DNA of 64,000 nucleotides from an uncultured Candidatus Saccharibacteria bacterium. GTDB lineage: Bacteria; Patescibacteriota; Minisyncoccia; Phycocordibacterales; DSPV01. Position 1 is the first letter of the stretch; each line of letters starts with the position of its first letter. Positions 10,051 to 50,160 of this stretch are shown here, one piece after another. A model generated the notes under the pieces. It saw only the letters and a list, made by a program, of their open reading frames with translations. It made no database searches and was not told where the DNA came from. The stretch covers positions 331,589-395,588 of the forward strand of contig CAZTXT010000001.1 in assembly GCA_964617735.1 (NCBI GenBank), given 5' to 3'. Position numbers and translations under genes: made by a program.

Positions 10051-10956
10051 GTGTCTACGCTTTATACCGAGCAATCAAAGAATGTACGCAGGACATGGTT
10101 TCTCATGTCCTTGTTTTTGGCGATAATCATTTGTATCGGCTGGTTCATCAGCTATTACTATCAGAGCCCTGCGATCCTCTATGTCGCGGTAATCTTTTCG
10201 GTAGTGATGAATATCGCCAGTTTCTGGTTTTCGGACAAGATAACCCTCTCGCTCTCCCATGCGATCCCCGCTGACCCTAAGCAGTACCCGGAACTTTTTC
10301 ACATCGTCGAGAATCTTTCCATCACTGCGGGACTTCCTGAACCGCACCTCTATGTCATAAACGATCCTGCCCCCAATGCGTTCGCGACGGGGAGGGATAA
10401 AGAACACGCCGCAATCGCGGTGACGACTGGTCTTCTGCAGATGCTCGACCGCAATGAGCTTGAAGGCGTCATCGCGCACGAACTCTCGCATATCGGCAAC
10501 CGCGACACGCTGCTGCAGACGGTCGTGGTCGTCTTGGTCGGGTTCATCGCGATTTTGGCGCATATCTTCACCCGTTCATCGTTCGGGTTCGGCGGGCGCC
10601 GGCGCGAAGGAGGGAAAGGCGCTGGTATCTTAGTGCTCATCGGCCTTATCTTCGTGATTCTTTCGCCCATCATTGCGCAGTTGATCCAACTTGCTATTTC
10701 GCGGAAACGTGAATTTCTCGCCGATGCCGATGGCGCGCTGTTGACGCGGTTCCCCGAAGGTCTCGCGCGTGCGCTCAAAAAGATCTCCGCCTACGATCAG
10801 CCGATGCAGTATGCCAACCACGCGACCGCGCACCTCTATATATCCAACCCGTTCGGTCCGCATGAGGAGCAGGGGTTTATCACCAAACTGTTTATGACCC
10901 ATCCCCCGATACCGGAGCGGATCAAAGCGCTGTTAGGCAATCAGGCTGTTGTGTAG
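10051..10956 (+). CDS. htpX: Zinc metalloprotease HtpX (M48 family)
   Basis: 'HELSHIGNRD' HExxH motif and four TM segments. Confidence 0.85.
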   Translation: MSTLYTEQSKNVRRTWFLMSLFLAIIICIGWFISYYYQSPAILYVAVIFSVVMNIASFWFSDKITLSLSHAIPADPKQYPELFHIVENLSITAGLPEPHLYVINDPAPNAFATGRDKEHAAIAVTTGLLQMLDRNELEGVIAHELSHIGNRDTLLQTVVVVLVGFIAILAHIFTRSSFGFGGRRREGGKGAGILVLIGLIFVILSPIIAQLIQLAISRKREFLADADGALLTRFPEGLARALKKISAYDQPMQYANHATAHLYISNPFGPHEEQGFITKLFMTHPPIPERIKALLGNQAVV

Positions 10957-11016
10957 TTGAAAGTTGTGGCATTACAGTTTAGAGTGTGAGCGATCACCGC
11001 TGGTCGCAGAAAGACT

Positions 11017-11101
11017 GGAGGAGTCGCATAGTGGCCTAGTGCGCTCGCTTGGAAAGCGAGTAGGGGGAAACCCCTCGAGAGTTCGAATCTCTCCTCCTCC
11101 G
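11017..11101 (+). tRNA. tRNA-Ser(GGA), type II with long variable arm, no encoded CCA
   Basis: Acceptor GGAGGAG/CTCCTCC, D-loop 'agtgg', anticodon loop 'ttGGAaa', long variable arm, T-arm GAGAG-TTCGAAT-CTCTC, discriminator G. Confidence 0.85.
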
Positions 11102-11288
11102 ATGCGATTTTGAGAATACCTTTTGGTATTCGTAATCGCATTTCGTGTGAATGCGAGATTCGAAAGCCGCAGCGCACGGAGCGAGTGGAGCGAGCGAAGT
11201 CCGACCGAAGGTCGGGCGCGAGGCGGGGTCGAGAGTACTTGGATTTTTGGAGTCCGCAGGACGAACAAAAAGCTTAGTAACTCGTGAC

Positions 11289-11345
11289 CGAATCTCTCCT
11301 CCTCCGCCTGAAGAAGAAAGTATCGGAGGTATGCGAAGGCATACC
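11289..11345 (+). repeat. Direct repeat B1 (contains an 18-bp copy of the tRNA-Ser 3' end)
   Basis: Matches 14963-15019 with about 5 mismatches over 57 bp. The first 18 nt equal tRNA-Ser positions 11084-11101. Confidence 0.8.
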
Positions 11346-11409
11346 CCGGTGATGCGCTGCGGAGGGCTAAGTTGGCTTCGCTCGTAGGTTAGGAGTAATG
11401 TGAAAGTCT

Positions 11410-13338
11410 ATGGCATGGGACGACGGTTTAAGCGCAGGAACATCGGCGCATCGGATTGCGGGATCAACCCATCGGCGTATTCGGGTTTTAGCGGGTCCTG
11501 GCACGGGTAAATCCTTCGCAATGAAGCGACGTGTGGCTCGCATACTTGAAGTTGAAGGCATCGATCCTACGCAGGTGCTCGCAGTAACCTTTACACGAGT
11601 TGCTGCTGAAGATATTCAGCGTGAACTTCTGTCCTTGGGTGTGACGGGCGCTGACAGGTTGAAAGCAAAGACACTCCACAGTCTGGCGATGTCGATACTC
11701 ATGCGTAATCATGTGCTTACCGCCTTAGGTCGAGTACCAAGACCTCTCAACAAATATGAACTTGAGCCATTATTGGCAGATTTGAGTAATACACACGGAA
11801 ACAAGCGTGAGCGTAAGCGTTTGATTAGGGCTTACTCTGCCGCATGGGCACGCCTACAAACTCAGGAGCCTGGGTATACTCGCTCTCCAGCAGAACAATC
11901 TTTTGTGGACGATTTGGTTGCCTGGTTACGTTTTCACAAAGCGATGCTCGTCGATGAATTGATACCGCATCTGTACCAATACTTACGAAATAATCCGGGG
12001 GCTCCAGAAAGAAACGAATTTCGACACCTGTTGGTTGATGAATATCAAGATCTAAATCGTGCTGAACAAGACGCCCTCCATTTTCTTGGGGAGAGCGGCT
12101 CTCTTTGCGTTATTGGTGACGACGATCAATCTATTTATAGCTTCAAACACGCACACCCTGAAGGTATTCGTGATTGGAGCACGGTGCACGCGGCAGACGA
12201 TCATGCAATAGAAGAGTGTCGAAGGTGTCCGACCACTGTCGTACGAATGGCGAACGCCCTCATAGCGCGGAACACTGATCGAATTGTGGGCCGTCTGATG
12301 ACCGAGAGACCAGAAAATGGCTCGGGTGAAGTTGTAATACGCCAATACCGGAGTGCCACACAGGAAACGGAGGCAGTTGCCGAAAGAATATCAGCGTTGA
12401 TAGCAAGTGGTATTGCGCCGAGCGAGATTATTGTTCTCACTCAACGCGAAGCATTTGCTACACCAATTTTTGATCAACTGAGAACGAAAAATATCCCAAC
12501 AAAATCCTATTACGCCGAATCGAGCCTCGACACATTGGAGGCCCAGGAGCGCTTCGCGACCCTAAAGCTCCTTTTGGATAACGAGGATCGAATCGCTTTA
12601 CGTTGGCTCCTTGGCTATGGGGCGGCGGATTGGAGAACGAATGCGTATCGACGTTTAATGAATTACGTAAGAGCAAATCACACATCTCCTTGGAATGCCT
12701 TAAATGCGCTGGTGGCAGGTACCGTCAGTGTTCCTTATACAGGCGCTCTCGTGAGTCGATTCAACGTAATCAAAGCTGAACTAGACTCGTTGCAGGGCGC
12801 GGCAAATCTGGATGAATTCATTTCGCGCTGGCTTCCAGAAAACCCCAATACCGCACTTCTCAGTGAAGCTGTCACTCAAAGCAAAGAAGGACTTGAAACT
12901 TCTCAAGAACTTTACGACGCCTTATACGAAGCGATCACGCACCCAGAAATACCATCTGAAGTTTCGGAAGTAAGGATAATGAGTCTACATAAAAGTAAGG
13001 GTCTGAGTGCCCCGTTCGTATTCATTGTTGGCTGCGTTGAGGGCCTCTTACCCGCATCGGCCGATCCGGATCTAACCGAGGACGAGCAAGCCGCAAAACT
13101 CGAAGAGGATCGGCGGCTATTTTATGTCGGAATTACCCGAGTCAAAGCCGACCCTACGGCAAATATAGTAGGGTATTTGGCCCTGACCTATGCCCGTACT
13201 ATGCCTGCGGCCGAAGCATATGTTAGTCAAATTACACCCTCTCAAACCGTAGGAGGAATGGCATATTTGCAGCCGACTCGGTTCATTGCAGAAATGGCTC
13301 CTCACGCCCCTGTGGCACAGACCAACACCCCTCTCTAA
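11410..13338 (+). CDS. UvrD/Rep-like superfamily 1 DNA helicase (short form)
   Basis: Walker A 'VLAGPGTGKS', motif II 'LLVDEYQDLN', 'VLAVTFTRVAAEDIQ', C-terminal 'IMSLHKSKGLSAPFVFIVGC' UvrD_C motif. Confidence 0.8.
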   Translation: MAWDDGLSAGTSAHRIAGSTHRRIRVLAGPGTGKSFAMKRRVARILEVEGIDPTQVLAVTFTRVAAEDIQRELLSLGVTGADRLKAKTLHSLAMSILMRNHVLTALGRVPRPLNKYELEPLLADLSNTHGNKRERKRLIRAYSAAWARLQTQEPGYTRSPAEQSFVDDLVAWLRFHKAMLVDELIPHLYQYLRNNPGAPERNEFRHLLVDEYQDLNRAEQDALHFLGESGSLCVIGDDDQSIYSFKHAHPEGIRDWSTVHAADDHAIEECRRCPTTVVRMANALIARNTDRIVGRLMTERPENGSGEVVIRQYRSATQETEAVAERISALIASGIAPSEIIVLTQREAFATPIFDQLRTKNIPTKSYYAESSLDTLEAQERFATLKLLLDNEDRIALRWLLGYGAADWRTNAYRRLMNYVRANHTSPWNALNALVAGTVSVPYTGALVSRFNVIKAELDSLQGAANLDEFISRWLPENPNTALLSEAVTQSKEGLETSQELYDALYEAITHPEIPSEVSEVRIMSLHKSKGLSAPFVFIVGCVEGLLPASADPDLTEDEQAAKLEEDRRLFYVGITRVKADPTANIVGYLALTYARTMPAAEAYVSQITPSQTVGGMAYLQPTRFIAEMAPHAPVAQTNTPL

Positions 13339-14511
13339 TTGTCTATGAGTAAGGATGATTATTTCTACCAACACTTGCAGAAAAATACCCTAAAAGATAA
13401 GGATGTTTTTTTGTGGGCGGCTTTAAACATTGAAAATAGCTTTTCGGGGCGGGTTGATATTCTTACGACCGGGCTACACCGATTCTTTTTAGAATCATCG
13501 AAGTTAATACTGAATGCGATTAAGCTTTACGAAGAGGGGTTTTTTGATGCCGCCTTCTACAGCACACGCTCTGCCCTTGAACTCGCGAGAGTTGTTACAT
13601 ATTTCTCAAATGAGAATGAACTTCAGGATAGTGAGGAATATAAAAATTGGAGAAAAGGTGGAAAATTCCCTTTTGATGCAGCAATAAGAAAACAACTGGA
13701 AGCAAGTGGAAGTGTGTACACAGAGGTACACACAACATTGAAGGATTTCTTTGACGAGCAGAAGGATCGACTTTCATCCGTTCAAAAATATATACACAAG
13801 CAAGGTTATAGGACCTTTTATGAAAGAGGATTTACGAATCCAGAAAGGGATAAACAACGGCAGGAAGTAATTGCCGATGATTTCTACCAGTTTCTTAAGG
13901 GGACGTTGGCTGAAGTAGCTTTTCTACGTTTATGTATTGATCCGTTCCCAATCCTCTTACGTGATAGTCAGGTAATGTATAAAATTCATTTTCAAGGAAT
14001 GACGGAGCCTTTTAGTGACGATTTTGTTACTAAAATTATTGGAGAAAATAAAATCAAACTGTACCGTTCAACCGAATTTTACGTCTCGCATCTAAATTAT
14101 TTTAGCGACAACGAAGAACTTACCGAAGAGATGTATACATTGGTTAATAACCAATACTACGATAGAAAAACCTGGTCGATTATTCAACCGCAAGTACATT
14201 TACTTTCCAAAAACGACACCGCTGCAGTCAACATATTTAATATCTCAAATAAGATTGCGAAAATATATATGTTTGGCGGGTTTGTTTGGTACTTCAGTGA
14301 TGTTAATTCACCTGGAGACCATACAGGATTTTCTTCAGAAGACTTATTGAGGGTAAAAGAGTCAGAGATAAAAACTAACTCAAAATACAAAGAATCCTAC
14401 ATGTCTTATTTCAACTTCGACGACGATGGTTTATGGGTTGAGCACAACGAGCCGCTAAACAAACCTGAGATCATTGAAATCGAGAAAGTACTCAATCCTA
14501 AGGTTCAATAG
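13339..14511 (+). CDS. Hypothetical 390-aa protein, translationally coupled to the helicase, AT-rich
   Basis: The TTG/ATG start abuts the helicase stop (TAA at 13336-13338). Codon composition differs markedly from the flanking genes. No motif recognised. Confidence 0.55.
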   Translation: MSMSKDDYFYQHLQKNTLKDKDVFLWAALNIENSFSGRVDILTTGLHRFFLESSKLILNAIKLYEEGFFDAAFYSTRSALELARVVTYFSNENELQDSEEYKNWRKGGKFPFDAAIRKQLEASGSVYTEVHTTLKDFFDEQKDRLSSVQKYIHKQGYRTFYERGFTNPERDKQRQEVIADDFYQFLKGTLAEVAFLRLCIDPFPILLRDSQVMYKIHFQGMTEPFSDDFVTKIIGENKIKLYRSTEFYVSHLNYFSDNEELTEEMYTLVNNQYYDRKTWSIIQPQVHLLSKNDTAAVNIFNISNKIAKIYMFGGFVWYFSDVNSPGDHTGFSSEDLLRVKESEIKTNSKYKESYMSYFNFDDDGLWVEHNEPLNKPEIIEIEKVLNPKVQ

Positions 14512-14794
14512 TTACACTACCTTTTGTAATTTTAATCCTGGACTTAAAACACCCCATAAGTTCACGTTTCTCCGCTCCCGTACCTTCTTTCAGAATGTAT
14601 TTCGCGTAGGTCCGTTGATCAACTTCCTCATGTTTCGTCTTGGCTCCGGAGAACCCTAGTACGCTTCGTTGAAACTTGTTGAATCGTTGTAGTTCTTCCT
14701 CGAACTTGTATCTGATGCCCAGCTCGTTGAAATCGACCTTATCCAAGTTTACGTACGAAAGGAAGCCGTGTTTTCGGTTCAAACTTCGGGACAT
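14498..14794 (-). CDS. Hypothetical small protein (about 99 aa) convergent on the helicase operon
   Basis: Internal Met with an upstream purine-rich stretch. The longer ORF reads through repeat B2, so the short form is preferred. Confidence 0.25.
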   Translation of the reverse strand: MSRSLNRKHGFLSYVNLDKVDFNELGIRYKFEEELQRFNKFQRSVLGFSGAKTKHEEVDQRTYAKYILKEGTGAEKRELMGCFKSRIKITKGSVTIEP

Positions 14795-14962
14795 CGTCCC
14801 CGTATTTGCAAAATTGATAGCTTTTGCTATCTCATTTTGCAAACAAGTTGAGGAAGCGGAGCTTCCGTGAGATTCGAACAGCGGAGCGGTGTTTCGCCAG
14901 CAGGCGAAACCGCGAGCTGGTGCCCAGACCGAGCCGAGTGACGACGAGGCGAGAGTTGCGGG

Positions 14963-15019
14963 CGAATCTCTCCTCCTCCGCCCGAAGAAGAAAGTATCGG
15001 AGATATGCGGACGCATAGC
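14963..15019 (+). repeat. Direct repeat B2 (contains an 18-bp copy of the tRNA-Ser 3' end)
   Basis: See B1. Confidence 0.8.
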
Positions 15020-15102
15020 AGCGAGAGGCGTTATGGGTCGGTTCTTGTACATAGAAGTTCAGCCAGCTTGAGAAAGCTTCGTACTAAATGTAATAATTAC
15101 GC

Positions 15103-15526
15103 TATGGCAACAATCAATCCCTACATTAACTTCAATGGAAATGCTGAAGAAGCATTTAATTTCTACAAGTCAGTATTTGGCGGAGAGTTTACGAATATCA
15201 TTCGCTTCAAAGAACTCTCAAGCCCTGAGTTCCCGGTAGCGGCGAATGAAGCGGATAAGATCATGCGCATCGAGTTGCCGATCGGCAAAAACGTTTTGAT
15301 CGCGAATGATGTCCCGGAAAGCATGGGACGAGTGAACGAGAATGAAAACAGATCCAAGATAGCGATTATTACAGAAACTAAAGAAGAAGCCGATAAACTC
15401 TTCAAAGGTCTTTCGGAAGGGGGCAGCGTTGAAATGCCTATGGATGAAAGTCCTTGGGGTACCTATTTTGCCATGTTCAGGGATAAGTATGGCATCGAAT
15501 GGACAGTGGAGTTTAAACGAAACTAA
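15103..15526 (+). CDS. VOC/glyoxalase-fold protein (PhnB-like)
   Basis: 'MATINPYINFNGNAEEAFNFYKSVFGG' is a typical PhnB/3-demethylubiquinone MTase-like VOC N-terminus. Lies between repeat B2 and the outer repeat A'. Confidence 0.55.
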
Positions 15527-15652
15527 TGGCTAACGGCAAGATGTGATTTTGAGAATACCTTTTGGTAGTTGAGGAAGCAAGAAAATCTATTTTCTTAGAG
15601 AGCATGCTTGGTACAAGATTCGATATTCCAAGAAGTGTGCTAGAATACCATT

Positions 15653-16057
15653 ATGAAAAAACCGAGCAAAGAAGAACTGAAGAAAAAACTTTCCGAAGAG
15701 GCCTATCAGGTTACGCAAGAGAAGGGGACTGAAGCGCCCTTCAGCGGGCAATACTGGAATAATCACGATAGGGGTATGTATCGGTGCGTTGTCTGCGGTA
15801 CTGAACTCTTTTCTTCAGATGCGAAATTCGATTCCGGAACAGGGTGGCCGTCATTCACCGATCCGATGAATCTCGAACATGTAGAACTCAAACCTGACAC
15901 TAGTCACGGCATGTTGCGAACCGAAGTCGTGTGCAGAAACTGTGGCGCGCACCTCGGCCATGTCTTTGATGATGGACCGGCGGAGAAGGGAGGAAAACGC
16001 TATTGCATCAATTCTGTCTGTTTGGAATTTGAAAAAGGAGACGAAGCGAAGCACTAA
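15653..16057 (+). CDS. msrB: Peptide-methionine (R)-S-oxide reductase MsrB
   Basis: 'YRCVVCGTELFSSDAKFDSGTGWPSF' and 'CRNCGAHLGHVFDDGP' motifs, 134 aa. Confidence 0.9.
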   Translation: MKKPSKEELKKKLSEEAYQVTQEKGTEAPFSGQYWNNHDRGMYRCVVCGTELFSSDAKFDSGTGWPSFTDPMNLEHVELKPDTSHGMLRTEVVCRNCGAHLGHVFDDGPAEKGGKRYCINSVCLEFEKGDEAKH

Positions 16058-32943: not shown

Positions 32944-33020
32944 GCCGGGGTAGCTCAGTTGGTTAGAGCGTCCGCCTGAAGAGCGGTAGGTCGCCAGTTC
33001 GACTCTGGCCCCCGGCACCA
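32944..33020 (+). tRNA. tRNA-Phe(GAA) with encoded CCA
   Basis: Acceptor GCCGGGG/CCCCGGC, D-arm 'agctcagttggttagagc', anticodon loop 'ctGAAga', T-arm GCCAG-TTCGACT-CTGGC, CCA at 33018-33020. Confidence 0.9.
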
Positions 33021-34475
33021 GTTGGGAAAAGTCAAAGAATCTTTATTCGCCTCGCTTCGCTCGGCGAGCACTTCGCGCGGCCTGTTCAGCGTAAAATGCA
33101 GTTTCCGATCTTCCAGACAAAAGTTCGAGCCGATGGTTTTAAGAAATGTTGTCATTCCTGCAAAGTTCTCCGAACTTTGCAGAATAAAGGCTTGATTCAA
33201 GGATTTTACGAACTCACGAGCTAGTTCGAGCCACGACAATCCTTTCTGTTCAAAATCAGTGATTTGTTCCTGAAGTTGTAACTTTTGGGAAATGAATTTT
33301 TCTTTTTTCCTCGCGTACTCTTCATGCGTCAACCCCTCACTCAAATACAAGTCTACAAGCTTGTCCAGCTTTTTCTCGACATCGGCTAACTCGACTTTAA
33401 GATTTTGAACAGAAAGGACAGCTTGTTGCCTTGCTCGCCTTTCGTCTTTTTCAAGTTCTGCTAATACCTTCTCCATGTCGTGGCTCGGCAAGGAAACTTT
33501 TCGTAAGAGATTTCTGATTTGCTCGGCTAACTTTTCCTCCCGCACAAAATGCTTTTCTTGGCAGTTTCCTTTTTTCTTGGTGCATCGGTAGTAGTGGTGT
33601 CCTTTCTGTATTTCGGCGGTGATTGAACATCCGCAACTTTTGCATTTCATAAGTCCAAGAAAAGCAAAGTGGTGTTTCTTTATCTCGCAGACCTTGCCGC
33701 GTTTTTCCAAAACCTCCTGCACCTTGTCGAAAAGTTTCTTTGATATGATCGGCTCGTGAGTTCCTTCGAAAATTTCCCCCTTCCACCTCATGAGTCCGGT
33801 GTAGAAAATATTTTGTAGCATGACAGGAATATGGCTCATGGCGATATTGCCGTTTGTATTGCTTTTCAGACCATTTTCCTTGCACCAATTTGCGAGAGAG
33901 TGGAGAGTGTAGTTTCCGGTGGAATACAGTTCAAATAACCTCCTCACTTTTGGGGCTTTCTCCGCATCAACATCAATTCCTCTCGTCTTTGGGTTGTTCA
34001 GGTATCCCACCGGAGCCCAGCCAGGCCAAACGCCATTTCGTATTTTTTGTCTCAAACCTCGCTTCACATTCTCTCGCAAATTGTCTACAAAATATTTTGA
34101 TTGGCCGAAAGCGATATTGAGCATAAACGAACCTTGCGGTGTCGGTTCGAACCAGAAGGTGGGAAATTTCAAAGATCTAATCAAGCCTTTATCAATCATG
34201 TAAATGATGCGTCCACCATCTACACTGTTTCTCGCAAGACGATCGGGGTGCCATGAGACAATACCCTCGGCTTTTCCTTTCTCAATCAATGACAACATTT
34301 CTTGAAACTTGGGACGGCCAGTCTCTTTGGCTGTTTGTGCCTCGCAAAGCGAGGCGACAATTTCAAGTTTTTCTTTGGCGCAATACAAAGACAGCTCAGC
34401 AAGCTGAGCTTGAATTGAAAGCACTTGTCGGTCATCTTCCTCGGTTGATTTCCGAGCGTAGAGGATGTATTTCAT
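32955..34475 (-). CDS. Large serine recombinase (resolvase catalytic domain, recombinase domain and zinc ribbon)
   Basis: N-terminal 'YARKSTEEDD' catalytic Ser motif, zinc-ribbon 'CKSCGCS...YYRC'. The last roughly 20 codons run antisense through tRNA-Phe. Confidence 0.85.
   Translation of the reverse strand: MKYILYARKSTEEDDRQVLSIQAQLAELSLYCAKEKLEIVASLCEAQTAKETGRPKFQEMLSLIEKGKAEGIVSWHPDRLARNSVDGGRIIYMIDKGLIRSLKFPTFWFEPTPQGSFMLNIAFGQSKYFVDNLRENVKRGLRQKIRNGVWPGWAPVGYLNNPKTRGIDVDAEKAPKVRRLFELYSTGNYTLHSLANWCKENGLKSNTNGNIAMSHIPVMLQNIFYTGLMRWKGEIFEGTHEPIISKKLFDKVQEVLEKRGKVCEIKKHHFAFLGLMKCKSCGCSITAEIQKGHHYYRCTKKKGNCQEKHFVREEKLAEQIRNLLRKVSLPSHDMEKVLAELEKDERRARQQAVLSVQNLKVELADVEKKLDKLVDLYLSEGLTHEEYARKKEKFISQKLQLQEQITDFEQKGLSWLELAREFVKSLNQAFILQSSENFAGMTTFLKTIGSNFCLEDRKLHFTLNRPREVLAERSEANKDSLTFPNWCRGPESNWRPTALQADALTN
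33014..33094. repeat. Inverted repeat a, left copy (includes the tRNA-Phe CCA end)
   Basis: Reverse complement of 34530-34610. Confidence 0.8.
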
Positions 34476-34529
34476 GGTTTTGGTGAGAGTTAGTTGATAA
34501 AAATGTTCTTGTATTCTTCCCTAGGGAAT

Positions 34530-34610
34530 TTCACGCTGAACAGGCCGCACGAAGTGCTCGCCGAGCGAAGCGAGGCGAATAAAGATTCTTTGACTTTTCC
34601 CAACTGGTGC
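34530..34610. repeat. Inverted repeat a, right copy
   Basis: Contains a copy of the recombinase C-terminal coding segment (ORF 34494..34679 shares '...FTLNRP.EVLAERSEANKDSLTFPNWC'). Confidence 0.8.
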
Positions 34611-42342: not shown

Positions 42343-42364
42343 GTGCGCGGTGAGGGACTTGGTC
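42343..42364. repeat. Direct duplicate of the tRNA-Val 3' end (att-like remnant)
   Basis: 'tggtgcgcggtgagggacttgg' vs 'tgtgcgcggtgagggacttga' at 42491-42511. Confidence 0.6.
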
Positions 42365-42493
42365 ACCCATAATCTTCTGGTGAAGATTTGTGCGACCCCG
42401 CCTCGCGCGCCGTCGCGCTCCGGCTTTCAAGTCCCGGATGAAGCTTACTAATGCCCCCTCGGACAGCCATCTGGCTGTCCTCGCGGATCATTG

Positions 42494-42566
42494 TGCGCGG
42501 TGAGGGACTTGAACCCCCGACCCTCCCTACGTCAAAGGGATGCTCTACCAACTGAGCTAACCGCGC
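42494..42566 (-). tRNA. tRNA-Val(GAC), no encoded CCA
   Basis: Minus-strand read 'gcgcggttagctcagttggtagagcatccctttGACgtagggagggtcgggggttcaagtccctcaccgcgca'. Confidence 0.85.
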
Positions 42567-44307: not shown

Positions 44308-44382
44308 GGCCCTATCGTCTAACGGTTAGGACGTGGGCTTTTCAAGCCTAAAATCCGGGTTCGATTCCCGGTAGGGTCACCA
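44308..44382 (+). tRNA. tRNA-Glu(UUC) with encoded CCA
   Basis: Acceptor GGCCCTA/TAGGGTC, anticodon loop 'ttTTCaa', T-arm CCGGG-TTCGATT-CCCGG. Confidence 0.85.
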
Positions 44383-46084
44383 GTTGGGTTTTATCCCGTT
44401 TGAAATCTTCAGATAGCTTGAAGAGTGGCTGTAATTTTGGTGTTCCATTAACTATCTCGGAGTAGGTCGGAACTTCCTCAAAAAATAAGCTCAATAGGGC
44501 TCGGCGTGACTGCAGATTGTCTGCGTTTGCAATGATTTCTGCGGGGTGTTCCATTATGCGTCGCGCGTAGCTAATAAACCCTTTGATGCTTCTCTCGGTG
44601 ATTTCAATCTGACCGCGTTTGCTTTCTGCCTCCTTAATACGGGCATCAAGCTCGTGCACTTGCTCTTCGAGCATGCGCCGCACTGTCGCATTGTCGGTCA
44701 ACGTAAGTGCATCAAGTTTGCGGACTTGTTCGGCTTTTAAATCTCCAACGTTGTGGCTAATTCGAGAGGACTGTTCAACGATTTCCTTCTCACGTTCGCG
44801 GTATTTTTTAATCAGCTTTTCGTGTAGCTTGTCGATAAAAGATTTATCAAATCGCAAACTGTCCAAATAATTCTTGATATTTTCTTCGAACTCTTTCTTT
44901 GGGACTCTGAAGCCGACATGCGCTCGCTTACTAACTTTTGCGCCGCCGCAATGATAAGCGGGAAACGTCTCACCGGATTTACCTCGAGACGCGCTCCCGA
45001 GGCATTCGGCTCTGCAGTGAGGGCATGGAATCACTTTCCATGGATATAAGGGATTGTCCTTCATTCGCTTCACTTTGCCCCATGGAGTGTAGTTATGAAC
45101 GACTTGAACGGTATTGTCGGCATTTTCTTTAATAAAAATTGCTCCGCGGTTTGCGCGATTAAACTTGTCGATGGAAACGATGCCTGTGAATTGCTGCATC
45201 CGTACGGGTTGGTGCTTTGTCCATTTTTCGTAATTTATTCCCGCATATTCTGTCTGAAGCACGAAACGCTGAAGCTGCTTCACTGTTAAAGATTTGCCCC
45301 CTCTTTTGCCGACGATTTTATAGTTCTCTACGTCACTTCTATCCCAACGCCTGTATGCGCGTGTCTTAAAGCCCTCTGCGTTTAGTTGCTTAACAATTTC
45401 TTTGTCGTCAACGCCAGCCGCTCGCAAGTCAAACATTTTGACGAAGAAATGTGCTCTTTCGGGGTCTGCCTCTCGGACAACGCGCTCTCGTCGGCCAATG
45501 ATAATCTTTTTATTTTTGAGACCGTCAGGAGCACGTCTCCCAGCGTAACCATCACGTACGTAACCAATTTCTGCCCCGACCATTCGCGTAAGGATATCTC
45601 TTGCTTCGGCCTTGCCTCTATGCGCTTCTAGCATCTCGGCTGCTTCACTCGGGTAGAACCTACTCCACTCGTATTCAACTCCAAGATGCTCCAGCGTATT
45701 CTTTTCAGGTTGGATTATTCCGTAGCTATCGCAAATTTGTACGCCGATTTTCGCAAAATCTTTTTTTAGGCGGTCGTATTCTGGGAAACCCTCGCGCGTG
45801 AGGCGGTCGATGGATTTAAAAATATAATACTGGATTGGTCTTGAAGCGTTCTTGCGGTTCCATCCTGAAATAAATTGCTTAATCATTTCGATATCTTCTC
45901 GCTCTGCGGTCGTCGCAGAGTGCGGTTTCTTAAAGACCTTGGCAACATCCCAATTACGACCCTCGGCATAACGACGTCCGATAATTTCTTGGTCTTCCAA
46001 ACTGCTTCCGCCCACTTGGCTGATATCACTCACGCGACAGTCGATTACGCAGTATTCTTTTTTGTCTTCAGTCGCCATACTCAA
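44348..46084 (-). CDS. Large serine recombinase
   Basis: N-terminal 'CVIDCRVSDISQ' catalytic Ser motif, recombinase domain and a Cys-rich zinc ribbon ('CPHCRAEC...YHCGG'). The C-terminus overlaps tRNA-Glu antisense. Confidence 0.85.
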   Translation of the reverse strand: MSMATEDKKEYCVIDCRVSDISQVGGSSLEDQEIIGRRYAEGRNWDVAKVFKKPHSATTAEREDIEMIKQFISGWNRKNASRPIQYYIFKSIDRLTREGFPEYDRLKKDFAKIGVQICDSYGIIQPEKNTLEHLGVEYEWSRFYPSEAAEMLEAHRGKAEARDILTRMVGAEIGYVRDGYAGRRAPDGLKNKKIIIGRRERVVREADPERAHFFVKMFDLRAAGVDDKEIVKQLNAEGFKTRAYRRWDRSDVENYKIVGKRGGKSLTVKQLQRFVLQTEYAGINYEKWTKHQPVRMQQFTGIVSIDKFNRANRGAIFIKENADNTVQVVHNYTPWGKVKRMKDNPLYPWKVIPCPHCRAECLGSASRGKSGETFPAYHCGGAKVSKRAHVGFRVPKKEFEENIKNYLDSLRFDKSFIDKLHEKLIKKYREREKEIVEQSSRISHNVGDLKAEQVRKLDALTLTDNATVRRMLEEQVHELDARIKEAESKRGQIEITERSIKGFISYARRIMEHPAEIIANADNLQSRRALLSLFFEEVPTYSEIVNGTPKLQPLFKLSEDFKRDKTQLVTLPGIEPGF

Positions 46085-46326
46085 ATGTTATCAGTTTCTA
46101 CCGGAAGAGCGGAACCGTTTTTTAGCTCGCGTAGCCACGAGTCGAAAAGCACGTCGGATAGTTGTTCCAACAATAAATCGACCCGTTCGACCGACGGAAA
46201 GTCGCTGCTGCCTTTGATTTCGTCTTTAGGTGCCACAGAAGCCCGCTCATGGCCTTGCAGGTGTCGGGAGAGACCCACAAAGCCATAAAAGGGCTTCGGT
46301 TCTCCCAACTTCTTGAAATGGGGCAA
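46081..46326 (-). CDS. Small protein translationally coupled to the recombinase (possible RDF/excisionase-like)
   Basis: ATGA overlap with the recombinase start. No motif recognised. Confidence 0.3.
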   Translation of the reverse strand: MPHFKKLGEPKPFYGFVGLSRHLQGHERASVAPKDEIKGSSDFPSVERVDLLLEQLSDVLFDSWLRELKNGSALPVETDNI

Positions 46327-46439
46327 TAAAAAAGCCCCGACCTCAAATCGGCATTTCTCAGGCCAGAGCGGACTCTGCGAGAAATAGCCGATTTCCTTGG
46401 CGTGGCTCGCTTTGTCCTGTGGCAGTTAGTCCAATTCTA

Positions 46440-47195
46440 TCACGCAGCGTGGGCAGCTGTCACTGCGCCCTTTTGTCGTTCATAGGCGCGTATTATGGCC
46501 TCCTTCAATTCATTCGGCTTAACCTCGTATATTTGGAAATCTTTGATATTGTCCTCCTTCAAGTGCAATTGGCCTTCTCCAACGTTCCCGCGATGCTGCC
46601 CCTTGGAATAGTATTTATTGCTCTTTACCTCATCTGAAGATAAGACCCAGTACTTGATAACGTCGCGCCAAACGGCTACCCATACAAAAACGTCACAGTG
46701 TGCCGGCTTGATTTGCTGAAAATTCATCCAAAACGAATGCTTACTTTCAAAAGAAAGGGCTTTAACGTAAAGCGCCTCTGAACTATCGCCATTGACAGCA
46801 CGGGACGCTTTAACCTCAATGCGTATCAAATTACTGCCATCATTGAGCAAAAAGTCGTAGTCACCTTTGTAATTTTGCTCAATTTTTTTCGTGGGCTTAA
46901 CTAGGTCAGGAACAAGCTCCTTTAAATGACCTTGTGCCCACTGTTCGCCAAATCCTCGTGGTGAACTTATCTCGAATATGTAAAGGTACATATTTCGAGC
47001 AATATATTCGTCTCTGATTTCGTAATAATCGTCCAGCGTTATTTTTCCAAATCCCATGAGTGACGAAATGATGTATTCGTACTCGTTAAATGGGTACACT
47101 GACACCAAGTCAGTTAAGCGTGAGCGAATAATTTCCCGCTTATCTGCCGACAGCTCGTCAATCAGCTTGTTCAGTTTTTCTTTCAGGTACTCCAT
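46440..47195 (-). CDS. PD-(D/E)xK nuclease-like protein (candidate restriction endonuclease)
   Basis: 'GDYDFLLNDGSNLIRIEVKAS' fits D...(E/D)xK. Lies immediately downstream of the MTase with a 3-nt gap. Confidence 0.45.
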   Translation of the reverse strand: MEYLKEKLNKLIDELSADKREIIRSRLTDLVSVYPFNEYEYIISSLMGFGKITLDDYYEIRDEYIARNMYLYIFEISSPRGFGEQWAQGHLKELVPDLVKPTKKIEQNYKGDYDFLLNDGSNLIRIEVKASRAVNGDSSEALYVKALSFESKHSFWMNFQQIKPAHCDVFVWVAVWRDVIKYWVLSSDEVKSNKYYSKGQHRGNVGEGQLHLKEDNIKDFQIYEVKPNELKEAIIRAYERQKGAVTAAHAA

Positions 47196-47198
47196 TGT

Positions 47199-49136
47199 TT
47201 ATTCGTATGTTAATAATTTCTCGGATGATTTAATGCCTTGCCTGACAAACTCCTGCTCACCCTTGGTTAGGTTAAACAGTTCCATTATAGAACAGTCGAG
47301 TTTATTGTGCATTTCTGCGCGTTCCTGTGCAGGGGTCTCTTTTCGCAGGAGTACTTCAAGCATTTTTGCAATTATTTTATGCTGACTTTCAGAAATAAGT
47401 GGTAGGGGCAGCTTCTCGACATCGCTTCGCAAAATCTTTATCGAGCGGAATTTCTTTTGATATACAAACTGGTAAAGAGAAGAATTAAATAATGCGAGTA
47501 CGGTCTTTATAGGATAGTTGGGAACTTTTGGAATTAAAATGTTGGCACTATTCAGAGTAAGCGTCTGCTTGTCGTCATAAGCAAAAACCAAATCCTTCGA
47601 AATGAATTTGTATATCAGTTTCTCCGCCGCTCTATATTTGCCTACGGGTGCTACCTGTTGAAATTTATCTGGCTCGAACTTAATGAAATGTTTTGGTGAA
47701 TTAAACAAGTATCGCTTTATCTCCTTACCGGTCAAAATGGCTTCGCTTCCAGCTTCTTTTTTGGGAAGAAGATACTTCTTATTATCACCAGTTACTACTC
47801 CAAGAGCCCACTCCGATTGACCTGCAAGTGAGGTGTGCTTTACGGCGAAAAACTTGTCGATGATGGCAAGTTCGTTGTTTCCGTTGAACACATCGAACGT
47901 AAAGTCAGGGTTCGACTTTAGCCGTGCTTGCAGCACTTTGTGAACAGTGCCGTTTTCCACCTCAAATTCGGAATTTTCGCTTGGCATTTTCTTGCGGACG
48001 TCCAAACGTATTACCGGTGTGAATACTTTCTTAAAAACGCGATTTAGGTGCTTTACTCTCGCGATTTCTGTCTGATGCAGTATTAAATTTCGAACATCCC
48101 TATGGATTTTTACGTGGAGGATTGCTTCGGGCAATATATAAGCCAAAACCCCACCATCCTTAAGCATGTCACGCCCCTTTGATATAAAAAGTGAAAATGC
48201 TTCGTCGGAGCTTATGTGCGGATAATTCTCCTGAATTTGTACAATCTCCGAGGGAGAGAAATGGACTCCCCATGGTGGGTTTGTCATCACAACATCAAAT
48301 TCTGGGAGCGCTTCCGAGTCAGAAAATAGAGTGTCTTTTAAAAATATATTTGGTTCGAAATCTGTGTCAGCAAATTTAATCAGAAGGTTAATACGTGCAA
48401 TTTTGACGGCAGTTTCGTCGATATCAAACCCCCACAATTGTGATGGATGTTTTACTGCGGTCGCAGCAGAAAGTAAAAATTGTCCGGTGCCACAGCATGG
48501 GTCTAAAACGATGCCAGAGGGTTGGACATATTCCTGCACGATATCTTCTACGACCCAGCGTGGAGTATAGTAAGACCCGCCTTGTGCCTTTTTTCCTTCC
48601 AACGAAAGAGATTGGTAAATGAGTCCGAGAAAATCACCGGTCTTTGGCAACTTATATTTGAGCAAGTCAGAATATTCAGTTTCAGAAAAAGTATTTTTTG
48701 TCCGCTCTTTCCACCAATTCAGTTCTTGCTTTAAACTTTTGCTTTTGAGCCCAGCTGCTTTAACTGCATTGAATACAAGTGCATAAAGCAGCGCATGTTT
48801 ATCTAATTCTCGGGAATGAAATTCATCCAGTACGTACTGAACAAAATGCAACATTTCCTCGCTGTCCGCGTATTCTTCGGGGATAAACATGCCTTGAGCA
48901 TGCTTTTTGTTCGCTCGCTTATTAAGTCGACCGAGTTCGCCATTGGCTATCTTTTCCTTCAGGTCTCGAACTTGTTGGTAGTCGAATAAAACCTTTCTTC
49001 CTTGGGTTGTCGGGACAAGATAATCGTGCCTTATCCAATTACGAACAGTGGCCGAAGAAACGCCTAAAAGCGACACTGCTTCTTTAAGGTCTATTTCTCT
49101 TTGTGGCGCACTTTGCATGTAACCATTGTAATACAA
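47199..49136 (-). CDS. N6-adenine DNA methyltransferase (gamma class) with N-terminal HTH_17/MerR-like domain
   Basis: Motif I 'VLDPCCGTGQFLLSA' precedes motif IV 'VVMTNPPWG'. N-terminal 'LKEAVSLLGVSSATVRNWIRHDYLVP'. Confidence 0.8.
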   Translation of the reverse strand: MYYNGYMQSAPQREIDLKEAVSLLGVSSATVRNWIRHDYLVPTTQGRKVLFDYQQVRDLKEKIANGELGRLNKRANKKHAQGMFIPEEYADSEEMLHFVQYVLDEFHSRELDKHALLYALVFNAVKAAGLKSKSLKQELNWWKERTKNTFSETEYSDLLKYKLPKTGDFLGLIYQSLSLEGKKAQGGSYYTPRWVVEDIVQEYVQPSGIVLDPCCGTGQFLLSAATAVKHPSQLWGFDIDETAVKIARINLLIKFADTDFEPNIFLKDTLFSDSEALPEFDVVMTNPPWGVHFSPSEIVQIQENYPHISSDEAFSLFISKGRDMLKDGGVLAYILPEAILHVKIHRDVRNLILHQTEIARVKHLNRVFKKVFTPVIRLDVRKKMPSENSEFEVENGTVHKVLQARLKSNPDFTFDVFNGNNELAIIDKFFAVKHTSLAGQSEWALGVVTGDNKKYLLPKKEAGSEAILTGKEIKRYLFNSPKHFIKFEPDKFQQVAPVGKYRAAEKLIYKFISKDLVFAYDDKQTLTLNSANILIPKVPNYPIKTVLALFNSSLYQFVYQKKFRSIKILRSDVEKLPLPLISESQHKIIAKMLEVLLRKETPAQERAEMHNKLDCSIMELFNLTKGEQEFVRQGIKSSEKLLTYE

Positions 49137-49145
49137 CGCCTAAAT

Positions 49146-49598
49146 TCATGCCTTTTGTTTACGACCCCAGACAAGCTTTTGACGCAGTTTTTCTTCAAAT
49201 TCATCCACAAGGGCTTGAACTTCAGGACTAGGTGAAGGGTCGCTATGGGCGTCTCGACTTGTAATCTCTACTTTTTGCCGTACCCCAAATTCATATGGTC
49301 TTTTACGCTCAAGATACCGAAATGCGTATACCGGATTATCAAGATTTTGTACCATTGTTTGCCGAGCTTTTAATATTGGCTGCGTTCGTATGGCTTCAAA
49401 CCTCTCCAAAAGGTCTCTATTTTGACTTATCCAGTGATAGTAGGTTGAAGGGGAGATGTTGGCATAAAAACAAGCTTCTTCGACTGTTGCGTCGAGCGCA
49501 AATGCTTGTTCGAGCTTTTGTATGGTTTCGGGTTTGAACTTACTCACTGCTCGCGAGATTCGCTGTCTTCGAAGCTGTTCGTTAGATGGCCTAGTCAT
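49146..49598 (-). CDS. Terminase small subunit-like HTH protein
   Basis: 'KFKPETIQKLEQAFALDATVEEACFYANISPSTYYHWISQNRDLLERFEAIR' resembles the Terminase_2 (TerS) N-terminal HTH pattern. Confidence 0.45.
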   Translation of the reverse strand: MTRPSNEQLRRQRISRAVSKFKPETIQKLEQAFALDATVEEACFYANISPSTYYHWISQNRDLLERFEAIRTQPILKARQTMVQNLDNPVYAFRYLERKRPYEFGVRQKVEITSRDAHSDPSPSPEVQALVDEFEEKLRQKLVWGRKQKA

Positions 49599-50160
49599 AG
49601 TGTTCTATTACACAATGGTGAGAATCTTTAATCGAAAAAAGTCGACTTTACGCGGGCGATAAGTTCAACGCGTTGGTGGTTTCAAACACGCGGTTCCAAG
49701 AAATTATCATGCTTTCCATAGTGTTCCATTGGAAGTACACTGGGCTCAAAAAGCGTCAGAAATCGCAAAGCAATTTGCGATTTTAGCTTTTGACGGGCGC
49801 AGTGATGTTTCGTTAGCAAACGAAACCACGAGCCGGGGTCGCGAAATTTCCGAGCGACGGCGAGGAAATATTCGTGACCATATATAATCTGTAAAAAATT
49901 ACCCAACCGAGGTTGGGTAATTGACTGGCTGTGTCAGTGCCGCAGCCGAGCTTTTTGTTTACGCTCAATCAGTTTGGTCGCCGTTGCAACGAGCCAGGCG
50001 TAGCAGTAAACGAACAGTAGCATACCGGCGTCTATCACGGAATGTCGGCGCATCTTCATAGAACCTCCGTTGATATTCTAGTCTCTGGAATTCTTTTTTC
50101 AAGAAGCCCCCTGATGATGCAGAGACTGTATGCATCGGTCCTAGATACTCTTCTATCCGA

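Follow-up and report, generated by a model that had tools for sequence, protein, structure and literature searches.

A conserved three-way-junction element ending in copies of neighbouring tRNA 3' ends behind tRNA genes of Patescibacteria

The stretch of DNA analyzed here, 64,000 nucleotides of an uncultured Candidatus Saccharibacteria bacterium (GenBank assembly GCA_964617735.1, contig CAZTXT010000001.1, positions 331,589-395,588; hereafter the window), contains a tRNA-Ser(GGA) gene followed by an islet that encodes a helicase, a 390-residue protein, a 98-residue protein and a VOC/YjdN-like protein, ahead of msrB (15653-16057) (Table 1). The last 18 nucleotides of the tRNA, CGAATCTCTCCTCCTCCG, occur in exact copies at 11084-11101, 11289-11306 and 14963-14980. 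The two copies outside the tRNA, which had been pointed out in an earlier reading of the sequence (the original prediction), agree with it at 18 of 18 positions, and the only other near match in the 64 kb, with one mismatch, is the native 3' end of tRNA-Ser(CGA). Each of the two extra tRNA-Ser 3' ends belongs to a conserved three-way-junction element, here called E, and supplies the 3' strand of its closing helix. The locus is a two-unit array behind tRNA-Ser: the tRNA gene is followed by a 205-nt unit devoid of open reading frames (ORFs) that ends in a first copy, E(A), then by a 3,674-nt cargo unit that carries the helicase, 390-aa and 98-aa genes and ends in a second copy, E(B2), and finally by the displaced tRNA end with its flank, the VOC gene and msrB.

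Table 1. Features of the tRNA-Ser(GGA) islet and of related loci in the window (R1, covariance model of E; P0, hairpin of E)
Feature	Position	Strand	Remarks
tRNA-Ser(GGA)	11017-11101	+	Rfam tRNA 55 bits; ARAGORN gives 11016-11102
Repeat copy X1	11084-11101	+	last 18 nt of tRNA-Ser(GGA), positions 56-73
Outer direct repeat, left copy	11101-11128	+	28 nt, GATGYGATTTTGAGAATACCTTTTGGTA
E(A), ORF-less, divergent	11155-11296	+	R1 match 11157-11294, 32.4 bits, E=1.7e-7; fold z-score -3.85
Repeat X2 (B1)	11289-11356	+	copy of tRNA positions 56-73, then CCTGAAGAAGAAAGTATCGGAG, then hairpin
Helicase, UvrD/PcrA superfamily, GajB-like, accessory	11410-13338	+	Pfam UvrD-helicase 1.1e-40; PADLOC GajB 1.2e-49
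390-aa protein, weak DUF5677 match	13339-14511	+	low-GC stretch (0.34-0.40)
98-aa ORF, convergent with the 390-aa gene	14498-14794	-	no family match
Terminator-like hairpin between cargo and E(B2)	14816-14831	+	similar hairpin ahead of the element in contig L102
E(B2), canonical core	14852-14970	+	R1 match 14862-14981, 116.2 bits, E=4e-32
Repeat X3 (B2)	14963-15030	+	tRNA positions 56-73 again, with a flank sharing 85% identity with that of X2
VOC/YjdN-like (PhnB-like) gene	15104-15526	+	promoter-like site 15068-15097
Outer direct repeat, right copy	15540-15567	+	28 nt; msrB follows
Large serine recombinase	32955-34475	-	3' end overlaps tRNA-Phe
E(Val)	42343-42442	-	R1 52 bits, E=3e-13; fold z-score -3.4
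Serine recombinase, tRNA-Glu island	44348-46084	-	island also has a 251-aa protein of unknown function and a 150-aa helix-turn-helix protein
Eco57I/TaqI-like methyltransferase, tRNA-Glu island	47199-49136	-	
Orphan E	49760-49897	+	R1 match 49778-49897, 86.9 bits, E=1.7e-23; P0 49760-49783
Perfect palindrome ACCCAACCGAGGTTGGGT	49901-49918		next to orphan E, tRNA-Glu island

Each extra copy of the 18-mer stands at the start of a longer direct repeat, X2 and X3, and these 68-nt repeats flank the cargo unit. They were first described as a 57-bp pair with about five mismatches, and indeed differ at 5 positions within the first 57 nt, with 85% identity across 68 nt. Shuffled sequences are expected to hold 0.06 matches to the 18-mer, and four matches were reached in 0/100 shuffles. 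The separate outer repeat reported at the tRNA and after the VOC gene is likewise present, 28 nt long with one mismatch between its copies, and two copies appear in none of the shuffles, which rules out a chance origin of the repeats. The junctions running from E(B2) through the repeat and the VOC gene to msrB are assembled alike in two Logan contigs from two sequencing runs (L002 and L123), and an assembly artefact is thereby ruled out as well. The 18-mer is unchanged in its three copies, whereas X2 and X3 differ by 15% in their flanks, and this comparison of sequences provides mild evidence (about 0.05) that the copies may be maintained. The left outer repeat is the 5' half of a hairpin (11104-11139) located directly 3' of tRNA-Ser(GGA); it starts at the discriminator G and spans half of this hairpin. 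The distal outer copy is preceded neither by an E element nor by the rest of the tRNA end. The original prediction overlooked the homologous structured elements that lie just 5' of both extra copies and the same arrangement at tRNA-Val(GAC).

Canonical copies of E are about 146 nt long (about 120-150 nt in the family as a whole). From 5' to 3' they comprise an arm complementary to tRNA positions 66-72, a hairpin P0, a segment complementary to positions 56-65, the trinucleotide GAA, a conserved hairpin P2, a hairpin P3 with the loop GCGACGGC, and a copy of positions 56-73 of the neighbouring tRNA. The 5' strand of the closing helix P1 is the reverse complement of the local tRNA T-loop and T-stem (GAGATTCG...CGAATCTC behind tRNA-Ser and GGGACTT...AAGTCCC behind tRNA-Val), and P1 tracks the identity of the tRNA, with ATTCG/CGAAT in Ser and ACTTG/CAAGT in Val. 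The Ser and Val elements all fold as P1 plus two hairpins. In an alignment of 31 copies, 90.8% of the cells are paired as compared with 78.5% in shuffles, and double-change cells number 144 against 49.7 expected, a value equalled by 0/500 shuffles; when the partner is slid out of register, at most 47.7% of the cells are paired. The compensatory changes are located in P1, the outer part of P2, and P3. The P0 hairpin lies 5' of P1 in most copies, as in GCAAGCCAA-CTGC-TTGGCTTGC (L074, L077) and GCAACGCGC-CTGC-GCGCGTTGC (L039), and its loop, CUGC, is able to pair with the P2 loop, GCAG. Ahead of P0, a stretch of 7 nt is complementary to the acceptor 3' strand of the copy; 6 or more of the 7 pairs form in 6 of the 16 copies, as compared with 2.9% for controls. 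All eight canonical copies (144-148 nt) adopt a fold made of an acceptor-like stem and of P0 to P3, from which the discriminator protrudes, so that canonical E is predicted to be tRNA-shaped, P2 and P3 taking the place of the T-loop. In E, positions 56-60 are paired in P1 and T54-T55 are missing, so that it has no T-arm with a GTTCRANNC loop, and neither ARAGORN nor the Rfam tRNA model returns a call on it. We consider this anatomy, and the assignment of the copies to one family, to be very probable.

The covariance model R1 reports four copies of E within the window. In E(A), GAGATTCG (11155-11162) is paired to 11289-11296, both P2 and P3 are larger than usual, and the conserved GTGACC stands ahead of the copied tRNA end. 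The original prediction had offered "an element plus a remnant" as one option; the segment 11102-11288 is not what is left of a large element but a complete ORF-less unit of the E family. In E(B2), P0 (14852-14866) is followed by GAGATTCG (14869-14876), by P2 and P3, and by the 3' strand of P1 (14963-14970). The acceptor-like stem is weak or absent in the window copies, E(B2) reaching at best 5 of 7 pairs by inspection. The E(Val) copy lies behind tRNA-Val(GAC) (42493-42566, minus strand); its last part, at 42344-42361, repeats 18 nt of the tRNA-Val 3' end, and after it come CCA and then the first bases of the neighbouring gene. The fourth copy is an orphan at the far end of a serine-recombinase island beside tRNA-Glu; it is devoid of any tRNA-derived helix, exhibits compensatory changes in P2, and is followed by a hairpin. 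Among the tRNA genes of the window (11017, 32085, 32567, 32944, 42493, 44141 and 44308), CCA is encoded in three (Phe, Glu, Ser-CGA) and not in the four others. The two E-bearing tRNAs have no CCA in the working gene, and their displaced copy is followed by CCA (Val) or CCT/CCC (Ser).

An exact 20-mer from the P2 hairpin was used to search for the family in metagenome contigs, and 86 of them matched. In 62 of the 86, a tRNA gene lies upstream on the same strand (within 600 nt, E standing 50-400 nt behind it), and these tRNAs represent 27 anticodons and 14 amino acids. The last 14 nt of the tRNA recur after the 20-mer with at most two mismatches in 42 of the 62 contigs, exactly in 34, mostly at 66-90 nt from the start of the 20-mer. 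The arrangement is a direct duplication of 18 to about 88 nt from T-loop position 56/57 onwards. Of the 37 cases analyzed, 32 unique ones have a locatable T-loop, and in 19 of these C56 is the exact first base of the repeat; the opposite boundary falls between position 73 and about 70 nt past it, and may take in the tRNA terminator. Where a working tRNA gene is devoid of CCA, one often stands right after the distal copy (tRNA-Val of the window, L055, L064, L092, L050), which fits a displaced original tRNA end. Between the proximal repeat and E lie 0 to 3.8 kb of DNA; most copies are without cargo, dozens of units being only 127-205 nt long, and E often sits between the tRNAs of one cluster. 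Larger arrays also occur. In contig L102, six small accessory genes occupy the 3.8 kb that separate two copies of E, and the tail of a third copy is different. In L060, a 373-aa gene whose product has a Fic-like N-terminus lies between E copies and a predicted ATPase just past them, both as judged by reading the sequences, with no family search. A second sequence family (L023 11066-11166, and the 3' part of L072) shares the same frame, namely P0, GU, a T-arm-complementary segment, GAA, two hairpins and a tRNA-end copy, around an unrelated AT-rich core; in L072 it comes after a copy of the first family, both standing behind one tRNA-Lys. In a subgroup behind Glu, Arg, Lys and Ala tRNAs, the 5' arm appears by inspection to pair with an A/C-rich trailer-like stretch and not with the T-arm. 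The neighbours of E do not point to a protein partner, as only syntenic housekeeping genes recur, and a module after the tail shared with L053, GAAGAAAGTAT, is probably a coincidence.

Evidence for insertion comes from related genomes. The tRNAs of L013 and L004 are identical, and L004 has one extra block of 135 nt made up of a tRNA-end copy, a 25-nt spacer and E; the flank after its distal copy is homologous to the L013 flank. L013 and L004 represent an empty and a filled site. The 95 nt ahead of the copy at 14963 in the window are 90% identical to L004:8669-8762, while the HtpX proteins of the two genomes are only 66% identical. The L004 element lies directly behind its own tRNA-Ser and ends in the 3' end of that tRNA, CGAATCTCCTACCCTCTG, unlike that of the window, and in both genomes the tRNA-end copy after E matches the host's own tRNA. 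Among 27 genomes with the htpX-tRNA-Ser arrangement, only L004 has a strong R1 match, and a downstream tRNA-end copy is found only in L004, L023 and L026 among 24 tRNA-Ser(GGA) genes (27 related loci). The original prediction had stated beforehand that the same repeats around conserved housekeeping content in related genomes would indicate an ancestral arrangement; what we found is that the gene content behind tRNA-Ser(GGA) differs between related genomes, in line with the L013/L004 pair and with a variable region. Look-ups of LemA, HtpX, MsrB, VOC, helicase and P390 did not reveal an allele of this species with an empty site; they returned only fragments that show the arrangement of the window and break at the repeats. 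Contigs L007, L010, L012, L021, L022, L026 and L116 break off no more than about 400 nt past tRNA-Ser(GGA); the end of L116, which comes from the same species, appears to fall inside that tRNA. Such ends fit repeats or strain variation that break assemblies.

We favour the reading that E is a complementarity-directed insertion element with cassette behaviour. If so, E would be mobile and its target would be set by pairing of its 5' arm with the sequence just 3' of the insertion point, that is, the T-loop, T-stem and acceptor 3' strand of a tRNA gene in most copies and the tRNA trailer in the subgroup. It would act as a folded single strand, like the integron attC or the attP hairpin of the CTX phage, on which an insertion enzyme encoded elsewhere in the genome would work. 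Each insertion leaves the tRNA intact, and insertions would be kept only where the tRNA is restored. Repeated insertion, together with recombination between units, would then stack accessory, defence-like cassettes behind the tRNA promoter, and the empty junction would be tRNA-Ser directly joined to the X3 flank or to ATGTGATTTTGAG. Taken as a whole, the statement that joins the anatomy of the E family to a pairing-directed mobile cassette element is evenly poised between belief and doubt, and its mechanistic half, a single-stranded and pairing-directed insertion, is a tentative proposal that leans slightly to the doubtful side. Three routes may give the same final arrangement, namely a folded single-strand site, an RNA route, and a transposon-like insertion followed by rescue of the tRNA. 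On the RNA route, E would be joined to the 3' part of the (pre-)tRNA at 56/57 and the product copied back into DNA, which would explain the variable boundary that often coincides with terminators. A still more specific version is doubtful: E would be a programmable tRNA-shaped mobile element, either single-stranded DNA or a small structured RNA, that uses its bipartite 5' arm to pair with the final 17 nt of the tRNA and to direct joining at 56/57, possibly by its own catalysis or through a reverse transcriptase or recombinase acting in trans, forming an integron-like platform that could sit at any tRNA gene and would need no integrase in cis.

Several points weigh against the favoured reading. 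The filled site fits three events equally well, since it may have arisen by insertion at 56/57 of a unit with its own tRNA end, by insertion after position 73 with a target duplication, or by integration of a circle through a single crossover within the repeat. The outer 28-nt repeat does not follow the layout of the inner units. The islet genes match no family of recombinases, transposases or reverse transcriptases, nor do the scanned ORFs of the window apart from two large serine recombinases with different-looking junctions. At some loci a terminator stands between the tRNA and E, which is awkward for simple co-transcription. In the window copies the acceptor-like stem is not convincing, and E(A), which scores 32 bits, is degenerate. 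The core was retrieved with an exact 20-mer, so that the conservation of that stretch is partly due to ascertainment. Lastly, the mispairs, which bear on the strand that folds, be it RNA or single-stranded DNA, show only a weak bias of G-T over A-C (34 vs 26 in P1-P3, 15 vs 7 in P0).

The alternative that survives best, which we nevertheless judge unlikely, is that E is the gene of a tRNA-shaped small RNA released from tRNA operon transcripts, in which P2 and P3 would do the work, for instance as a ribozyme or as a module that binds protein. The acceptor/T-stem-like helix would allow trimming by RNase P, RNase Z and the CCA-adding enzyme, and the tRNA ends would be repeated because the RNA must mimic the neighbouring tRNA, with occasional spread, possibly via an RNA intermediate. 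The 7-bp acceptor-like stem with its discriminator overhang, enriched over controls and present in 8/8 canonical copies, speaks for such a molecule, as does the CCA often found after the distal copy, yet the stem is missing from the window copies. The loops and junction bases are conserved, the P0 and P2 loops can pair, a second family keeps the same frame around a different core, and the 18-mers are unchanged while their flanks diverged; however, the G-U bias is weak. The tRNA is on the strand of E in all 62 contigs with an upstream tRNA, E is often inside tRNA clusters, and a hairpin follows the orphan copy (49760-49897), whereas the terminators upstream of E at some loci do not suit this view. 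Above all, the duplication that runs into the terminator at several loci and the L013/L004 pair indicate a DNA insertion event and not the slow evolution of an RNA gene.

The model of the original prediction, serial site-specific integration into the tRNA 3' end, would have ordinary islands enter the T-loop one after another by means of a tyrosine or serine integrase whose gene was later deleted, E being the attP arm next to attR. We regard this as improbable, although part of it stands: the DNA is inserted and variable, it forms two nested units, and the repeats start at C56 of the T-loop. What does not hold is the view of the extra tRNA ends as plain att scars left by an integrase-borne island, because each of them is base-paired into a conserved, covarying element. 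An intact tRNA with partial 3' repeats from the T-loop is the classical signature of such islands, and the cargo is accessory and partly of low GC content; compensatory changes in P0, P2 and P3 are nonetheless unexpected for a double-stranded protein-binding arm. Large serine recombinases do occur at tRNA-Phe and tRNA-Glu in the window and behind tRNA-Ser(GGA) in L003, and the orphan E stands at the far end of the tRNA-Glu island beside a perfect palindrome, but the window junctions of these recombinases fall after CCA (CACCA/GTTGGG) and no tRNA sequence is duplicated there. The absence of an integrase, which the original prediction had noted, is borne out, as scans with Pfam, PADLOC and NCBIfam assign none of the four islet proteins to a recombinase family. 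Moreover, dozens of units are only 127-205 nt long, and clustering of the ORFs within 4 kb of E by sequence, with no family searches, reveals no recurrent recombinase-like family. Nor was E found in viral, phage and plasmid collections, where the only viral match falls within a coding sequence and is due to chance. Finally, the internal segment that tracks the tRNA lies about 100 nt from the crossover, so that recombination cannot reset it.

It is very improbable that E is a miniature non-autonomous derivative of a HUH single-stranded DNA transposon (IS200/IS605 PATEs, REP/RAYT, IS91) or of an IS110-type element, with the T-loop GTTC as target and an internal guide that pairs with the flank: the insertion point at or next to G53-T54-T55-C56, present in every tRNA, the hairpins with conserved loops and guide-flank pairing that recall the ends of IS608, the multi-copy family without coding capacity and the weak G-T bias expected of DNA hairpins all point that way, but such transposons make no long target duplication (18-88 nt are duplicated here), their pairing involves about 4 nt in IS608 against 8-19 bp here, and no TnpA, TnpB, Y1, Y2 or DEDD transposase was found among the scanned window ORFs and no recombinase-like family recurs near E. 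Two catalytic RNAs were also considered and rejected. The strand order of E fits a hammerhead ribozyme, but the CUGANGA and UH core positions do not match and no Rfam ribozyme was reported; for a group I intron, E is too small and has neither a terminal G nor a P1/P10 logic. Published work on tRNA introns in Patescibacteria concerns position 35/36 and is unrelated to E.

Searches of Rfam 15 scored only tRNAs, with nothing over E at E<=10 in the window or at E<=1 in nine canonical loci. No description of E was found in the literature, although subscription journals were outside the coverage and an earlier description is therefore possible. Each of the nearest known systems shares some features with E and differs in a defining one that was tested. 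Islands that enter tRNA genes by a T-loop-type crossover include tandem, integrase-less arrays made only of cargo, for example tycheposon islands. They resemble the E loci in their intact tRNA with a partial 3' repeat, an identity that starts in the T-loop, stacked units, accessory or defence-like cargo, and the lack of an integrase in some. In contrast, the distal repeats of E are built into a covarying three-way junction with a complementary 5' arm, most E units are gene-less and of 127-205 nt, no integrase was found for any of them, and all tRNA types are used. As the islet encodes no serine recombinase, it does not qualify as a large-serine-recombinase element either.

Integron attC sites and CALINs likewise present a folded, recombination-site-like element at the 3' end of the cassette, in which an inverted core at the start pairs with a segment just past the junction; structure is kept across two unrelated cores, arrays run in the same orientation behind a fixed platform (here the tRNA), and ORF-less cassettes occur. 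Unlike attC, E has no RYYYAAC/GTTRRRY cores, since it starts with GAGATTCGAA(C/A) and its distal junction reads GTGAC/CGAATC or GCGGG/CGAATC with no GTT before the repeat, and it forms a branched junction with a P2 conserved in sequence and not a single imperfect hairpin; the bias as to the folding strand is also weak. The platform is moreover a tRNA gene, and the paired segment of E varies with the tRNA. Regarding IntI, Pfam reports no Phage_integrase hit among 29 proteins of the window, which is only part of the 675-kb genome. The Xer-dependent attP of the CTX phage is also similar, with an inverted half-site of the target, about 90-100 nt in between, and a hybrid site at the right junction. 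However, the target of E is the T-arm of a tRNA instead of dif, there is no phage genome, and there is no evidence of a role for Xer. Like the tRNA-like RNAs (the tmRNA domain, YrlA, viral tRNA-like structures, mascRNA), canonical copies of E pair their two ends into an acceptor-like stem, weak or absent in the window copies, that stacks on a helix resembling a T-stem, and they have a discriminator and in many cases CCA; E differs by having no T-loop, positions 56-60 being paired, and no match to the tRNA clan or Rfam, by stems that copy the adjacent tRNA, by its multiple copies, and by its link with an insertion polymorphism. Elements directed by guides, such as group II introns (EBS/IBS), IS608, IS110 with its bridge RNA, and the R2 ribozyme, whose P1 involves target rRNA, also contain an internal segment complementary to the target that varies with it; size, fold and the junction with a long duplication set E apart, and none of their proteins is present. 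E is therefore best filed as a variant of tRNA-linked integrative cassette, defined by a structured mimic of the tRNA end and widespread in Patescibacteria, that matched nothing in the collections and literature covered.

Patescibacteria account for a large share of bacterial diversity and have tiny genomes with few recognised mobile elements. If the favoured reading is right, their tRNA genes would be hot spots for an overlooked non-coding element, which would explain both the integrase-less accessory or defence islets behind tRNAs and the contigs that break after a tRNA. The targeting rule, a 5' arm complementary to the sequence past the junction, would be simple and open to direct test, and it might be re-programmed. 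With the covariance model and the 20-mer, a census of the family is easy. Even if E were only an RNA gene, a multi-copy tRNA-shaped RNA that copies the stems of the neighbouring tRNA would be unusual.

As to the islet genes, the helicase scores 180 bits against NCBIfam pcrA, whose cut-off is 911, and lies far under the cut-offs for the housekeeping PcrA/UvrD proteins; it is an accessory paralogue. It is not an ancestral gene of the region behind tRNA-Ser, as the 990-aa helicase of L004 and L013 is only 21% identical to it, while HtpX is about 65% identical. The GajA partner is absent, the neighbouring 390-aa protein having no PADLOC hit, and because no GajA stands beside the GajB-like helicase the pair cannot be assigned to Gabija. 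Other islands of Patescibacteria encode homologues of the 390-aa protein but not the helicase, which does not support a conserved pair of the two; the family is also present in Bifidobacterium and Methanobrevibacter. One such homologue is encoded in a tRNA-Gln island (L120 7734-11500, also in L121) together with a Shedu-type SduA_C gene and, at the far end, a homologue of the 98-aa ORF (36% identity over 84 aa); this island has no E element and no tRNA-end repeat. A call of a 184-aa ORF at the 98-aa locus is an artefact that reads across E(B2), and the 98-aa ORF is not a recombinase fragment, as it bears no similarity to the serine recombinase of the window.

Two other tRNA genes of the window carry serine-recombinase units. 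The tRNA-Phe unit (32944-34610) carries a pair of flanking inverted repeats, at 33016-33100 and 34525-34609, each about 85 nt long and opening with CACCAGTTGGG, and looks like a compact invertible or IS-like element. The tRNA-Glu island spans 44308-49918 and has the same CACCAGTTGGG at its junction; the palindrome next to the orphan E may be the att site of its recombinase. The closest relative, L003, whose HtpX shares 71% identity, has a serine recombinase directly behind its tRNA-Ser(GGA), surrounded by long inverted repeats (10932-12932) and with 49% identity to that of the tRNA-Phe unit. Therefore, this locus is a hot spot for more than one type of element.

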